Assembly (NCBI RefSeq): GCF_003334405.1
Contig: NZ_QOWM01000023.1
Length of the DNA stretch: 45,349 nucleotides
Strand: one strand, 5' to 3'
Source of the DNA: Escherichia coli
GTDB taxonomy: Bacteria; Pseudomonadota; Gammaproteobacteria; Enterobacterales; Enterobacteriaceae
Shown here piece after piece: positions 2-45,349 of this stretch. The notes beneath the pieces were generated by a model. The model was not told the origin of the DNA, made no database searches, and saw only the letters and a list, made by a program, of their open reading frames with translations. A program made the position numbers and the translations under genes. How positions within the stretch are numbered: position 1 is the first letter of the stretch; every line of letters starts with the position of its first letter.

Positions 2-77
2 TGGTGGGTCGTGCAGGATTCGAACCTGCGACCAATTGATTAAAAGTCAACTGCTCTACCAACTGAGCTAACGACCC
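2..77 (-). tRNA. lysT: tRNA-Lys (anticodon UUU)
   Basis: Reverse complement is a 76-nt tRNA ending in CCA, with anticodon loop CUUUUAA and TTCGAATCC in the T-arm, matching E. coli tRNA-Lys. It sits just downstream of cpoB, as the first tRNA of the lysT-valT-lysW cluster does in K-12. Confidence 0.93.
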
Positions 78-241: not shown

Positions 242-1033
242 TTACATCGCGTTCAGACGTTTTTGTGCCTGTTTAGCGCCATCAGTACCAGGGTATTTAC
301 TGATAACCTGCTGGTATACGGCTTTCGCTTTTGCGGTGTCACCTTTGTCCTGCATGATGACGCCGACTTTAAACATCGCATCTGCAGCCTTTGGTGACTT
401 CGGATAGTTTTTCACTACCGAAGCAAAATAGTACGCCGCATCATCTTTTTTACCCTTGTTGTAGTTTAACTGACCCAGCCAATAATTGGCGTTTGGCAGG
501 TAAGTTGAATCAGGGTAATTTTTGATGAAATTCTGAAATGCCACCATTGCGTCATCCTGGCGGGATTTATCCTGCACCAGCGCAATAGCTGCATTGTAAT
601 CCGTGTTTGCATTACCGCTTTTCACCGGCGCGCCAGCATTCGCAGTACCAGCATCAGCTGTCGGCGTCGTTGATGCCGCCGCACCGCTTTGATCGCCGCT
701 GGTTGATTGCGCCGCTGCACCACCGCTGCTGAGGCTGTCGATCTGCAACAGGATCTGCTTTTGCCGCTCCACGACCTGATTCAGTTGATACTGATTTTCC
801 TGAATCTGACCACGCAGGGAATCAATATCGGATTGATTATCAGAAAGTTGTTGCTGGAGTTGGGTTAAAAGCTGGCTGTGAGCATTAGAAATACGCTCAA
901 GTTGAGTGACGCGGTCTTCGACCGAGCCTGAGCCGACACTACTGATTGGTGCCTGAGCAAAAGCGGCCCAGGGGGCCGCTATACCAACCAGTAACGACAG
1001 ACTCAATAGTTGATGTCTGAAGTTACTGCTCAT
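242..1033 (-). CDS. cpoB: Cell division coordinator CpoB (YbgF), periplasmic TPR protein
   Basis: 263-aa ORF starting MSSNFRHQLLSLSLLVGIAAPWAAFA (signal peptide), with a Q/L-rich coiled coil and C-terminal TPR-like repeats. Last gene of the tol-pal cluster. Confidence 0.95.
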   Translation of the reverse strand: MSSNFRHQLLSLSLLVGIAAPWAAFAQAPISSVGSGSVEDRVTQLERISNAHSQLLTQLQQQLSDNQSDIDSLRGQIQENQYQLNQVVERQKQILLQIDSLSSGGAAAQSTSGDQSGAAASTTPTADAGTANAGAPVKSGNANTDYNAAIALVQDKSRQDDAMVAFQNFIKNYPDSTYLPNANYWLGQLNYNKGKKDDAAYYFASVVKNYPKSPKAADAMFKVGVIMQDKGDTAKAKAVYQQVISKYPGTDGAKQAQKRLNAM

Positions 1034-1042
1034 GCAATTCTC

Positions 1043-1588
<546 letters not shown>

Positions 1589-17699: not shown

Positions 17700-17960
17700 C
17701 CCGTAGGCCTGATAAGACACGTTAAACGTCACATCAGGCATCGCTTGTCGGATGCGGCGCTTGCGCCTTATCCGACCTACATTGGTGGTCCCCGTAGGCC
17801 TGATAAGACACGTTAACCGTCACATCAGGCATCGCTTGTCGGATGCGGCGCTAGCGCCTTATCCGACCTACATTGGTGGTCCCGTAGGCCTGATAAGACG
17901 CGTCAGCGTCGCATCAGGCTTCAATTGCCGGAGAAGGCGATAATGCCTTATCCGGTCTAC
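17700..17960. repeat. Tandem array of three ~90-bp BIME/REP units in the sucB-sucC intergenic region
   Basis: Units at 17700-17790 and 17791-17880 are near-identical (two substitutions and one indel by eye). A third, more diverged unit lies at 17881-17960. Each unit holds two REP-type palindromes (GCCTGATAAGAC...GTCACATCAGGC and GTCGGATGCGGCGC..GCGCCTTATCCGAC). Confidence 0.85.
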
Positions 17961-22195: not shown

Positions 22196-22316
22196 GCCTG
22201 ATGCGCTGCGCTTATCAGGCCTACGGGTAATGACTTGTAGGCCGGATAAGGCGTTCACGCCGCATCCGGCACTGGTTGCCTGATGCGACGCTTGCGCGTC
22301 TTATCAGGCCTACGGT
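22196..22316. repeat. REP (BIME) palindromic units in the sdhB-sucA intergenic region
   Basis: Three REP-type palindromes: GCCTGATGCGCTGCGCTTATCAGGCCTAC, GTAGGCCGGATAAGGCGTTCACGCCGCATCCGGC, GCCTGATGCGACGCTTGCGCGTCTTATCAGGCCTAC. They abut the sdhB stop codon. Confidence 0.85.
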
Positions 22317-32801: not shown

Positions 32802-32952
32802 TTTACCATGATGCCCTTTGCCGCCGGAAAGGGCATCTCTTTCAGAAAATTGCTGATTTTCCCCTTTTCCTTGATTGCTGTTATTTTTTCCTGGCCCAGC
32901 TTTCTTTATGCTGTATCGATACACCAAAGAGAAAATAATGAGGGAGCGAAGG

Positions 32953-33999
32953 ATGCCAGTTTTGCAGTGGGGAATGTTATGTGTGCTATCACTTCTCCTT
33001 TCTATTGGTTTCCTCGCGGTACATCTCCCGGCGGCGCTATTACTTGGGCCGATGATCGCCGGGATCATCTTTAGTATGCGCGGAATTACTCTGCAACTTC
33101 CCCGCTCTGCTTTTCTCGCCGCCCAGGCCATTCTTGGCTGCATGATTGCGCAAAACCTCACTGGTTCGATTCTCACCACCCTGGCCGTCAACTGGCCGAT
33201 CGTGCTTGCAATTTTACTGGTAACGCTGCTTTCCAGCGCCATTGTGGGTTGGTTATTGGTGCGCTATAGCTCATTGCCTGGAAATACCGGTGCCTGGGGC
33301 TCCTCTCCTGGCGGCGCGGCGGCAATGGTCGCTATGGCGCAAGATTACGGCGCAGATATTCGCCTGGTGGCGTTTATGCAATATCTGCGAGTGCTGTTCG
33401 TCGCGGGGGCCGCTGTTCTGGTCACCCGCATGATGCTGGGCGATAACGCTGAAGCGGTTAACCAGCATATCGTCTGGTTCCCGCCAGTGAGCATTAATCT
33501 CCTGCTTACTATTTTGCTCGCGGTCGTTGCCGGTACAGTGGGATGCCTGCTGCGTCTTCCTTCCGGCACGATGCTCATCCCGATGCTGGCGGGCGCAGTG
33601 CTCCAGTCTGGTCAGCTCATCACCATCGAACTACCGGAATGGCTGCTGGCGATGGCGTATATGGCAATTGGCTGGCGGATTGGTCTTGGTTTCGATAAAC
33701 AAATCTTACTGCGGGCACTACGCCCGCTACCGCAAATCCTGCTGTCGATTTTTGCTCTGCTGGCTATTTGTGCGGGTATGGCGTGGGGGCTGACCCGGTT
33801 TATGCACATTGATTTTATGACTGCCTACCTCGCCACCAGCCCCGGCGGGCTTGATACCGTGGCGGTCATCGCCGCAGGGAGCAATGCCGATATGGCGCTC
33901 ATTATGGCGATGCAAACCCTACGCCTGTTCAGTATTTTGCTGACAGGGCCTGCCATTGCGCGGTTTATTTCAACCTATGCGCCGAAGCGGTCGGCCTAG
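32953..33999 (+). CDS. abrB: AbrB-family putative membrane transporter (regulator of aidB expression)
   Basis: 348 aa polytopic membrane protein from [26 protein letters not shown]. The ORF track extends 26 codons upstream to 32875. Confidence 0.85.
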
Positions 34000-34787
34000 T
34001 GCTGGCAGCCAGGGCACCAGTAAAACGGGCGAGATGACAGCGTGGTTTTCTCAATGATGCTGCCACAACGTTCGCACGGTTCGCCATCTCGATGAAAAAC
34101 CTTAAAGCGAAACAGCGCCCCATGATGCTTATTCTCATCCACCTGCCCCCGCGTAGCGTAGGAAAATCGAGGAATCTCCAGTAACGCGTGTGCGAGTGCA
34201 TCCAGTTGCGCCGCATTGAGATCTTTCGCTTTATGATTTCCAGTCAACCCAACCTGCCAGAGGATCTCCACCCGCAAATAATTGCCAAGCCCAGCCAGAA
34301 ACGCCTGATCGAGCAGTAATCCAGCAAACTGACGGTTACGAAAGCGCGGCGACAATAATCGTTCTTTCACCACCTCCGGCGTCAGATTCGGATCCAGCAC
34401 ATCGGGACCAACGCGTTGTAAAAACGGATGCGTGGTCAGTTGTTCCGGGGTCAACATCTCAATATCCGAGGCGCTATAAAGCAGAATGGTTTTGTCAGCC
34501 GTTTGCAGTTTTACCCGCAATACTCGCGTGGTCTGCGGCTCTTCGCCGGTATCAACCACGCGCCAGACGCCGTAAAGCTGATTATGGCTGTAGAGCGTTA
34601 AGTCGTTGGAAAAATGAGTTAACAACGCCTTACCACGCGTTTCCACATGGGTAACGTGTTGACCGATAAGTTGTGATTGATAAGGTTTTAACTGCGGGAA
34701 GGCAAACCAGACATCAGTTAGTGGTTTGCCTTTGATCGCCGCCTCCAGGTTATCCGCTGCACGGCGGATCTCCGGGCCTTCAGGCAT
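33996..34787 (-). CDS. nei: Endonuclease VIII (Fpg/Nei-family DNA glycosylase)
   Basis: 263 aa, [21 protein letters not shown] (catalytic N-terminal Pro), C-terminal zinc finger [24 protein letters not shown]. Confidence 0.96.
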
Positions 34788-39662: not shown

Positions 39663-39770
39663 GCCTGATGCGACGCTTGACGCGTCTTATCAGGCCTACG
39701 TATTTCCTGCAATTTATTGAATTTGCACAAATTTGTAGGCTGGATAAGGCGTTCACGCCGCATCCGGCAT
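39663..39770. repeat. REP (BIME) palindromic units between dtpD and phr
   Basis: GCCTGATGCGACGCTTGACGCGTCTTATCAGGCCTAC and the inverted GTAGGCTGGATAAGGCGTTCACGCCGCATCCGGC, separated by an AT-rich spacer. Confidence 0.85.
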
Positions 39771-42630: not shown

Positions 42631-42869
42631 TTTGTTCTCCTTAATTATGTAAGGAGTATTTGATCATGTGTAAGCAATAAAAAACAGCTTTAGGTAATAA
42701 GGAATATCTCAATTTTTAAACATAAAATGCGAATTGTTTAGTACAAAAAGTGAACTTCTGATGATCTTTCCCTGTGTTTAACGCAGCCTTCTTTCTTTTC
42801 CTCTTCACCCTTAATGTCTTTGCAATCTCTTAATAAATTCAGTGCCATCTTCTTTATTCCAGATATTAT

Positions 42870-43860
42870 TTAGGCTGCGTTTCCTCTTCTTATCCGGCTG
42901 GCATCTTCATTCATTTTTACATCTAACACCCAATGAAGACTGTGCTCGATCAGCCAGTGCGCTCTGATAGCATGTGCAAATTCTTTAGCATCCATATCCT
43001 TTGATGAAATATAATATCGGATGCTTACACCTTCTGCTGATTTATCTTCTTTCTTCTGCCTGAATGACAATGCTACACAAAGCTTTTTTAATCCCTTCCA
43101 TTCGAATTCAAAATCACAAAAGTTCAGGCGTTACGTTACTGACAATATGCAAACGTGTTTCTTTTCTTCCATGACTTATCTCCTGCGTACTAAACGAATC
43201 GCCTTTATAATTAGAAAACACATTTACAGGAAATTTTTCCTCGAATGCATGATGTAATTTCCCCTGATTGCCTTTTACTGCCAGAAGATAATCTGCTTTT
43301 TTATCTTTGATCTTCGAAGCGATATCTTTCTGACAGCCCATAGCATCAATGGTTATCAAATTTTTCTTTAAATACAGTAGGTTAAGCAACTCTGGAATGG
43401 CTGTAATCTCATTACTTTTGGCTTCCGTTTTCACCTGCCCCAGTACAACACCATTTTCGTTCGAGAATGCACTCACCATATGGATTGCTCCTTTTCTTTT
43501 TCCCTTATCAAAGGAGCCTCTTATGGTCTTTCCATCTATTGCTATAATTTCACCATCAGTGATTTCATGGCACTCCTGCATCCATTCAATAAACATCTTT
43601 TCAAAGGCCAAACTGTCAATGTTACTCACAACGCGTGCAATGGTGTCATCGACCGGAATGCCATTATCAAAATCACCATATTTCTTTAGCCATTCAAGTC
43701 TTTCATGTCCAAAATCTTCAATTTCCTGCCACTCATCGGCACCTGCAATTACTGCACATACGGTGAGAAACAAAATAGCAGATAATTTATGTTTAACCTT
43801 TCCTTGTTGTCGTATATCAGGGGTCACTGAAATATAATCAAGCAAACTTTGAATACTCAC
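42870..43860 (-). pseudogene. ybfL: Frameshifted, C-terminally truncated ISAs1-family (H-repeat) transposase
   Basis: The N-terminal part (43114-43860, 248 aa, MSIQSLLDYISVTPDIRQQGK...) stops at 43114. The continuation (...[65 protein letters not shown]) lies in another frame at 42870-43070 and ends short of the family's usual C-terminus. Confidence 0.8.
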
Positions 43861-44041
43861 CTGGCGTCCTTTTTTATCTTTTTAGTTATTCCAAAGGTTA
43901 AATTTTGATCACCTGTAGGCGTTAAAGCAAAGATGAAAATCGTGATTTACATCACAATTTTCATGATCTTGCCCTGCCCCGTCCCTTGCTCTCATGTCTT
44001 TCTGTATGTATTTTATATTTTTCTCTTTCTGGTGTTGTTCA

Positions 44042-44500
44042 TTATGACCATTTACCAATCCAGTCAAAAACTTCATTTTTCAAATTGTTATCATAATAAT
44101 CAACATCATAATAGTCTCCATAATTAATTATTTTATAACTAGCCTTCTTGTTTTTATCACTAAAATACACCCGTTGTTTTGTAGCGCAGAACTCCATATT
44201 CTCCAGTTTACTAATGTTTTTTAATCGCACGCTATAAAGAATATCATTGAAAAAATTAAGATTTATATCAACCACTCCACAGTGCGTCCTGTAATTATTA
44301 ACCATTATACTTATAAAATGACCATTCCCTCTACTAATTTTTTGGTCATTAATTATTTTATAAATAATATTTTTTTCAGAAAGATATATCTCAACGCTCT
44401 TTGGTGTTTTATGTCCATAAAATACGATGTCAGAATTTGAATTGTTATCAAACCCAAGGTAAACAACAAATAAACAAAGGGTAATTAAAAAAAATGACAA
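44042..44500 (-). CDS. Candidate Rhs-tip immunity protein (AT-rich ORF with N-terminal hydrophobic segment)
   Basis: 152-codon ORF beginning 8 bp after the Rhs-tip stop, with an apparent TTG start (the ORF-track 'M'). Strongly AT-rich with Asn/Ile/Lys/Tyr-rich composition and MSFFLITLCLFVVYLGF at the N-terminus. May correspond to K-12 ybfC; start codon uncertain. Confidence 0.6.
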   Translation of the reverse strand: MSFFLITLCLFVVYLGFDNNSNSDIVFYGHKTPKSVEIYLSEKNIIYKIINDQKISRGNGHFISIMVNNYRTHCGVVDINLNFFNDILYSVRLKNISKLENMEFCATKQRVYFSDKNKKASYKIINYGDYYDVDYYDNNLKNEVFDWIGKWS

Positions 44501-44508
44501 GTTTGCCT

Positions 44509-45349
44509 CTAATAATTTGAAGCATCTGAACTCCCTTGCTTTGCTTTTATTGGATTATCTGCTTTTATACCATCTAACCCGAAGAGTTGCCCAGTGTTAT
44601 ATTTTTCAATACATGCATCGCTACATTTGGCAGAAAAATCGCCACAAGCAATACCGACAGTGTTATTTTTAAGATCCATGATTCTTTCTTTAGCTGGCTG
44701 ACCTTGTCTATCCCCTGCCGCCTCATGATTTTTACCTATCACGTCAGCTATTGTTGATCCAAATGTCTTAGTCATTCGACACATCAAGTAACAATGTCTC
44801 ATTGCATCGGCGGCCCCATTATGAGCTCCGCCAACAATAGCATCCATATCATAACCGAACTGGTAAGCACTGTTAGTAATGCTGTTTGCAGCAATCAATC
44901 CAGGTACACCAGATACGGCATAAATTAGTCCACCTGATGTCATATTCTCAATCGCATCTAACCCCATTGGGTCTATCACTTGTATGGGATTCAACGGATA
45001 CTGATACATATTCCATCCACCTCTCAACCCAATCGGGTCCGGGGTGATATACCGCCCCTGCAACGGATCGTAGTGCCGGTGACGGTTATAGTACAGCCCC
45101 GACTCCTCATCATGCTGCTGCCCTGGCAGACGGTACGGCTGGTGCAGGTGATGCGGGTTCTCCTCATTAAGCTGGTTGCCCCATTCATCATACTCCCCGC
45201 GCCACGCCGTATTGCCGTCTTCGCTGATGAGCGCCAGCGGCAGGCCCCGGTGGTCGCAGTGGTAAAAATGAACTTTTCGCGCCGGTGTGTATTCCGGCTC
45301 CACCTGTCTGGCCAGTTGCTCCACCGTCAGCCCGCACTGCGCAAGCCAC
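44509..45349 (-). CDS. Rhs-family protein C-terminal region (partial; 5' end beyond the window): end of Rhs core plus variable toxin-like tip
   Basis: Reading frame is open to the window edge (...[37 protein letters not shown]...). It contains the core-terminal motif [27 protein letters not shown] (PxxxxDPxGL), then about 149 aa of unrelated AT-rich sequence to the stop at 44509. The ORF-track 'M' at 45324 is an internal GTG. May be K-12 ybfO. Confidence 0.8.

Follow-up and report, generated by a model that had tools for sequence, protein, structure and literature searches.

The locus described here lies in a 45,349 nt stretch of Escherichia coli DNA, analysed over its full length and referred to below as the window, in which the genes abrB and nei meet tail to tail. 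The abrB coding sequence (32953..33999, plus strand; 348 aa) was delimited by its open reading frame, by RefSeq mapping and by matches to TIGR03082 and PF05145, while nei (33996..34787, minus strand), which encodes the 263 aa endonuclease VIII, was assigned by NF007763 and by annotation. The list of open reading frames gives 32875..33999 (+) for the abrB frame and 33996..34787 (-) for nei. Direct reading of the junction (...gtcggCCTAGtgctgg...; in frame layout ...gcg gtc ggC CTA Gtg ctg gca...) places C at 33996, T at 33997, A at 33998 and G at 33999. The abrB frame is closed by the TAG at 33997-33999 and the nei frame by a TAG which is the reverse complement of the CTA at 33996-33998. The two stop codons are thus contained in one shared tetranucleotide, CTAG (33996..33999, not assigned to either strand), a member of the [C/T]TA[A/G] or YTAR class. 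The initial annotation had described overlapping TAG stops within a CTAG and zero intergenic space, and this description holds in the sequence read, in the list of open reading frames and in the RefSeq annotation.

Both proteins are complete at their carboxy termini. Nei matches the NCBIfam equivalog NF007763 with 504.8 bits (cut-off 252) over positions 1-263 of the 263 of the model, and the last cysteine of its zinc finger (CPGCQH*) is found three residues before the stop. AbrB scores 286.8 bits against NCBIfam TIGR03082 (“membrane protein AbrB duplication”) and is matched by Pfam PF05145 (E = 1.7e-97), which spans residues 29-339 of its 348, the Pfam and TIGR domains reaching residue 339-340 of 348. 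From these models, and from the conservation of the stop positions among relatives reported below, both stops are genuine protein ends, and the overlap withstands the possibility, raised with the initial annotation, that a wrong start or stop call had produced it. All defining features of the 4-nt convergent stop-stop overlap class are present, i.e., facing coding sequences, true protein ends and a [C/T]TA[A/G] tetramer.

Its domain matches place AbrB in the Gram-negative AbrB-duplication family of polytopic membrane proteins. The RefSeq product name “AbrB family transcriptional regulator” contrasts with the duplicated membrane-protein domain models and with a strongly hydrophobic sequence, and looks misleading. 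In the annotated gene order nei closes the same-strand run ybgI-pxpB-pxpC-pxpA-nei; its position as terminal gene of an operon is indicated by this order together with the title of Gifford and Wallace (2000) as cited in PMC6467930. Both frames have in-frame back-up stops shortly beyond the junction, a TAG at 33975-33977 (-) seven codons on for nei and a TAA at 34021-34023 (+) eight codons on for abrB, which means that a single mutation of the TA core abolishing both stops would add just seven to eight residues to each protein.

Overlap class and conservation of the junction

CTAG is a rare word in this DNA, with seven occurrences in the window (the junction being one of them) against 92.5 +/- 10.4 in dinucleotide-preserving shuffles. 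Its depletion and avoidance in E. coli is a well known, classic observation. The tetramer is rare, yet the geometry is unsurprising. Between convergent stop codons an overlap of one, two or three nucleotides is impossible, and one of four can arise solely as CTAG, CTAA, TTAG or TTAA. The 4-nt convergent overlaps, with these four tetramers named, form a jump in the length distribution of overlaps reported by Lillo and Krakauer (2007; PMC2174442), and from Tables 2 and 3 of that survey we computed that they make up 36% of convergent overlaps in 58 genomes ((1890-1218)/1890 = 672/1890). For E. coli K-12, where the frequencies are literature figures and not a genome-wide count of our own, 58 (PMC2174442) or 75 (Huvet and Stumpf, 2014; PMC4161906) convergent overlaps have been given. 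The nei/abrB pair, whose stops share the TA core of YTAR, is like the members of the 4-nt class in these two surveys and is one of the 58-75 in K-12. Nothing substantial sets it apart, except that it uses CTAG, the rarest tetramer of E. coli, and that this choice is not fixed within the species. It is an ordinary case of the commonest and smallest possible tail-to-tail overlap, and one which is already annotated and catalogued.

The junction is near universal in E. coli. The same 4-nt nei/abrB overlap is found in the RefSeq/PGAP annotation of eight out of eight strains examined (300709, AR_0055, MS20677, MG1655 and four more), and the observation is thus already part of public annotation. In MG1655 nei spans 745935..746726 (+) and abrB 746723..747769 (-). 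Of 5426 complete E. coli genomes, 5419 have the 122-nt junction at 90% identity or more and 5425 have a 2.1-kb segment surrounding the site, which is 100% identical in several. Taken as a whole, the window aligns in reverse complement with about 735.4-780.6 kb of MG1655, with 99.87% identity; a position-for-position correspondence was rejected on account of small indels and of divergence beyond 42750, so that MG1655 coordinates were mapped by anchoring on the junction itself. In E. coli O43 strain RM10042 the site homologous to window position 33996 reads TTAG. Here nei ends in TAA, and the final codon of abrB is GCT in place of GCC, a synonymous change since both encode alanine; the overlap is kept. 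The species is accordingly polymorphic, CTAG versus TTAG, with C or T as first base. In the O157:H7 strain 3-5-1 nei is annotated as a frameshifted pseudogene, with abrB and the 4-nt overlap intact.

The distribution among relatives was addressed by a scan for Nei with one genome per species, which returned 80 loci with both stops located in each. The nei stop occupies the same codon position in all 80 loci and Nei is 263 aa long throughout. A convergent abrB with the 4-nt overlap was present in 13 of the 80 species representatives, namely E. coli, E. whittamii, two other Escherichia lineages, E. albertii, seven Citrobacter and one metagenome-assembled genome labelled Raoultella. Read on the nei strand, the overlapping loci include all four tetramers (CTAG, CTAA, TTAG and TTAA) with an invariant TA core, E. 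albertii and Citrobacter supplying the CTAA, TTAG and TTAA variants of the homologous site. In other relatives the two genes are separated by spacers of 54 nt (Salmonella diarizonae), 6 nt (S. arizonae), 25 nt (C. sedlakii) and 75 nt (a C. amalonaticus relative), and 60 of the 80 Enterobacteriaceae species lack abrB in the 2.5 kb that follow nei. In both spaced Salmonella the carboxy terminus of AbrB falls at the alignment position that it has in the overlapping loci. Since the length of this end is unchanged, the overlap represents the absence of a spacer and not a lost stop. An origin of the overlap through loss of a stop codon or carboxy-terminal extension was rejected, as both proteins are equally long in overlapping and spaced relatives.

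Within the spacers of S. enterica subsp. diarizonae (L010 3293-3346) and of the C. amalonaticus relative (L023 3293-3367) stable hairpins were detected in the nei sense (z -2.24 and -2.29, respectively). By eye the former resembles a REP-type palindrome, and no Rfam match (E <= 0.1) was found in the Salmonella and Citrobacter nei-abrB spacers.

Transcript ends downstream of nei and abrB

As each mRNA must contain its own stop codon, the nei and abrB transcripts share at least 4 nt. In practice they share far more. A consensus scan of the window found no intrinsic-terminator-like site just past either stop, no stable hairpin spans the junction, where the RNA folds no better than shuffled sequence (z 0.0 to +1.3), and there was no Rfam match at gathering threshold near 33996. 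Among relatives, a terminator-like hairpin followed by a T-tract within 90 nt of the nei stop occurred in 0 of 16 overlapping loci. An intrinsic or bidirectional terminator at the junction was rejected on the basis of the scan, of the junction fold and of these 16 loci. The nei genes without an adjacent abrB are different in this respect; of 63 such loci about 26 carry a strong intrinsic terminator after nei, with a stem of 7-12 bp and a T-tract. The bidirectional intrinsic terminators described for other convergent pairs (Ju/Wang/Liu; bioRxiv 10.1101/2022.10.23.513370) serve genes of the same orientation that face the same problem of converging transcripts. In contrast to these, nei/abrB has no hairpin flanked by A- and T-tracts, while in genera without the adjacent abrB such a terminator is often present after nei, e.g., AAAACGGTAACCCGAAGGTTACCGTTTT.

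Ratios of C to G were calculated in 78-nt windows and ranked against the whole 45,349 nt. Past the nei stop, antisense to abrB, a C-rich and G-poor stretch extends from 180 to 360 nt (33638..33815, -) and is a candidate rut site; within it the ratio is 1.53 at 33815-33738 (-), the 90th percentile of the window, and 1.93 at 33715-33638 (-), the 97.5th percentile. Past the abrB stop, antisense to nei, similar stretches located 80-300 nt on (34080..34297, +), recognised by C/G ratio and by the GC-skew profile, would be sites of Rho loading; here the ratio is 2.07 at 34080-34157 (+) and 2.15 at 34220-34297 (+), corresponding to the 98.3th and 98.7th percentiles. C-rich, G-poor composition is associated with Rho loading, and the sequence signature of a Rho-dependent terminator (untranslated, C-rich and G-poor RNA, at least about 70 nt past the stop) is found on both sides of the junction.

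For the nei direction this signature coincides with published data. A Rho termination region at MG1655 747036 (+), labelled “antisense abrB”, is reported by Adams et al. (2021; PMC7815308, supplementary file 2), its Rho score being 2.87 (p = 7.6e-5). The underlying reads, from one dataset and low in number, are 68/30 untreated versus 75/95 with bicyclomycin, and the coordinate denotes a region derived from 800-nt windows and not a mapped 3' end. By anchoring on the junction, this coordinate corresponds approximately to window position 33686 (-), which is 310 nt downstream of the nei stop and inside the second of the C-rich stretches after nei. The case is like the Rho-dependent read-through and antisense termination of that study, with a bicyclomycin-sensitive region past the nei stop within C-rich, G-poor sequence, but it is documented for the nei direction alone and as a region. 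In the tables of the same work no Rho region or 3' end for the abrB direction was found, nor are Term-seq 3' ends listed on either strand in the interval 7458xx-7469xx of MG1655, a dominant end being absent within about 1 kb. Both absences fit low expression.

A further source is the catalogue of excludons obtained with ExcludonFinder (2025; PMC12288877), where nei-abrB is one of 165 convergent excludons detected in at least 50% of 58 MG1655 RNA-seq samples (Table 1); each of the two genes is named once in that paper, in Table 1 only. Taken together, the 4 nt that are necessarily shared, the lack of a terminator after either stop, the Rho region 310 nt on and the excludon listing bear out the statement of the initial annotation that the two transcripts overlap at their 3' ends. 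The interpretation given there is thereby supported in part, antisense interference being a putative consequence. At low expression the overlap of the transcripts is most likely a tolerated by-product. Neither the arrangement nor its transcription is new, as RefSeq annotates the overlap in E. coli, surveys have described its class since the 2000s and a published catalogue of excludons lists the pair itself.

Origin of the overlap and alternative explanations

We consider it probable that the junction is the end-state of compaction and holds no regulatory device: a spacer was lost, the genes abut in a YTAR tetramer which drifts neutrally, read-through is ended by Rho and the overlap of the transcripts is a by-product. 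On this model the unrelated convergent genes nei and abrB would have lost all of their spacer, coming to abut in the sole minimal overlap allowed (YTAR, here CTAG) with both protein lengths remaining normal. Deletion would stop at this point because any further loss cuts into the zinc finger of Nei or the fixed-length tail of AbrB. At each outer position of the tetramer the stop-codon wobble of one gene coincides with a third codon position of its partner, and changes there are silent in both, which leaves the tetramer free to drift among CTAG, TTAG, CTAA and TTAA. The substitution patterns at about 20 loci fit such neutral drift at two doubly silent positions. As the junction leaves no space for an intrinsic terminator, RNA polymerases from both sides would run into the partner gene in antisense; the resulting RNA, being untranslated, would be ended by Rho within a few hundred nucleotides, as has been reported for the nei direction and as we infer for abrB.

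The alternative that survives best, though we regard it as unlikely, is that of a functional convergent excludon, in which ybgI-pxpBCA-nei and abrB would be mutually antagonistic by collision of RNA polymerases, by RNase III cleavage of the duplex or by both, with the absence of a spacer being selected. The pair does belong to the E. coli “excludome” (PMC12288877, Table 1), and it resembles the convergent excludons of that work in its overlapping tail-to-tail transcription. Nei-sense transcripts reach about 300 nt into abrB in antisense before Rho acts (PMC7815308), the geometry of the overlap is conserved in Escherichia and in several Citrobacter, and excludon pairs are in general more syntenic (PMC12288877). 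The retained overlap and the listing are compatible with selection for transcriptional coupling as well as with compaction. The adjacency, however, is not conserved, with 60 of 80 species having no abrB within 2.5 kb and many of them a plain intrinsic terminator instead, and spacers of 6-75 nt occur in Salmonella and some Citrobacter. The listing is itself near-automatic, because the coding sequences overlap and both genes are expressed, and the read counts are low. The products of nei and abrB have no functional link, and a search of the literature found no report on reciprocal expression, RNase III processing or promoter knockout for nei-abrB. Reciprocal expression and processing by RNase III are seen in characterised excludons, whereas nei-abrB is known from a listing and is non-syntenic in most Enterobacteriaceae. 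A specific working form of this putative excludon, in which reciprocal repression would tie the operon of an oxidative-damage glycosylase, ybgI-pxpBCA-nei, to AbrB (named as a regulator of aidB) and the overlap would be kept by selection in Escherichia and Citrobacter, is in our judgement decidedly improbable. Were reciprocal interference true, the locus would be one more validated excludon, a result of modest interest.

Less probable still, to the point of being a marginal candidate, is bidirectional termination driven by collision, whereby the converging nei and abrB polymerases would end each other at the junction. Such a mechanism has been documented for convergent pairs of E. coli that share a bidirectional terminator (bioRxiv 10.1101/2022.10.23.513370), and nei and abrB are placed exactly tail to tail; the same work, however, indicates that defined end positions require a stem-loop in the nascent RNA, and the nei/abrB junction contains no hairpin or terminator-like element. 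The sole mapped signal is Rho-dependent and lies about 310 nt downstream. Since both genes appear weakly expressed, simultaneous arrival of two convergent polymerases would be rare.

An annotation artefact, with one of the stops not being a real protein end owing to a mis-called frame or a decaying gene, could draw on the doubtful product name of abrB and on the frameshifted nei of one O157:H7 assembly, but it is largely refuted and hardly credible, given the full-length equivalog match of Nei with its carboxy-terminal CPGCQH following the last zinc ligand, the AbrB domains that reach residue 339-340 of 348, the conservation of the AbrB tail length across genera, and the fact that re-annotation moves starts and never stop codons.

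Under the compaction model, which we prefer, the nei/abrB junction may serve as a textbook example in three respects. It illustrates that convergent genes overlap minimally by 4 nt, in the form YTAR, that doubly silent outer positions let the tetramer drift while the geometry stays, and that two genes with no space for an intrinsic terminator resort to Rho inside the partner gene.

Other features of the window

Another convergent pair in the window, phr/dtpD, contrasts with nei/abrB in having a 149-nt spacer, which contains a match to the Rfam sRNA family ES036 (CssrF) at 39692-39734 (-) with 75.1 bits. Three matches to the Rfam family naRNA4, a REP-derived nucleoid-associated RNA, are located in intergenic regions of the sucAB/sucCD and sdh/suc operons, at 17706-17868 (-) and 22240-22310 (+), with scores of 59.5-88.4 bits. 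At 1004-1142 (-) there is a full-length match (142 bits) to the CpoB/ybgF intercistronic RNA thermometer family, and the edge of the window at 5-77 (-) carries a tRNA, lysT in MG1655.

The right end of the window (42750-45349) departs from the tail of rhsC in MG1655 (ybfO/ybfC/ybfL). This segment is 100% identical to loci annotated as an ISAs1-family transposase, an RHS core protein, a YdcD-family protein and YncO, and when used as a query it gave a median of five matching places per genome, as is typical of the variable tips of Rhs elements.
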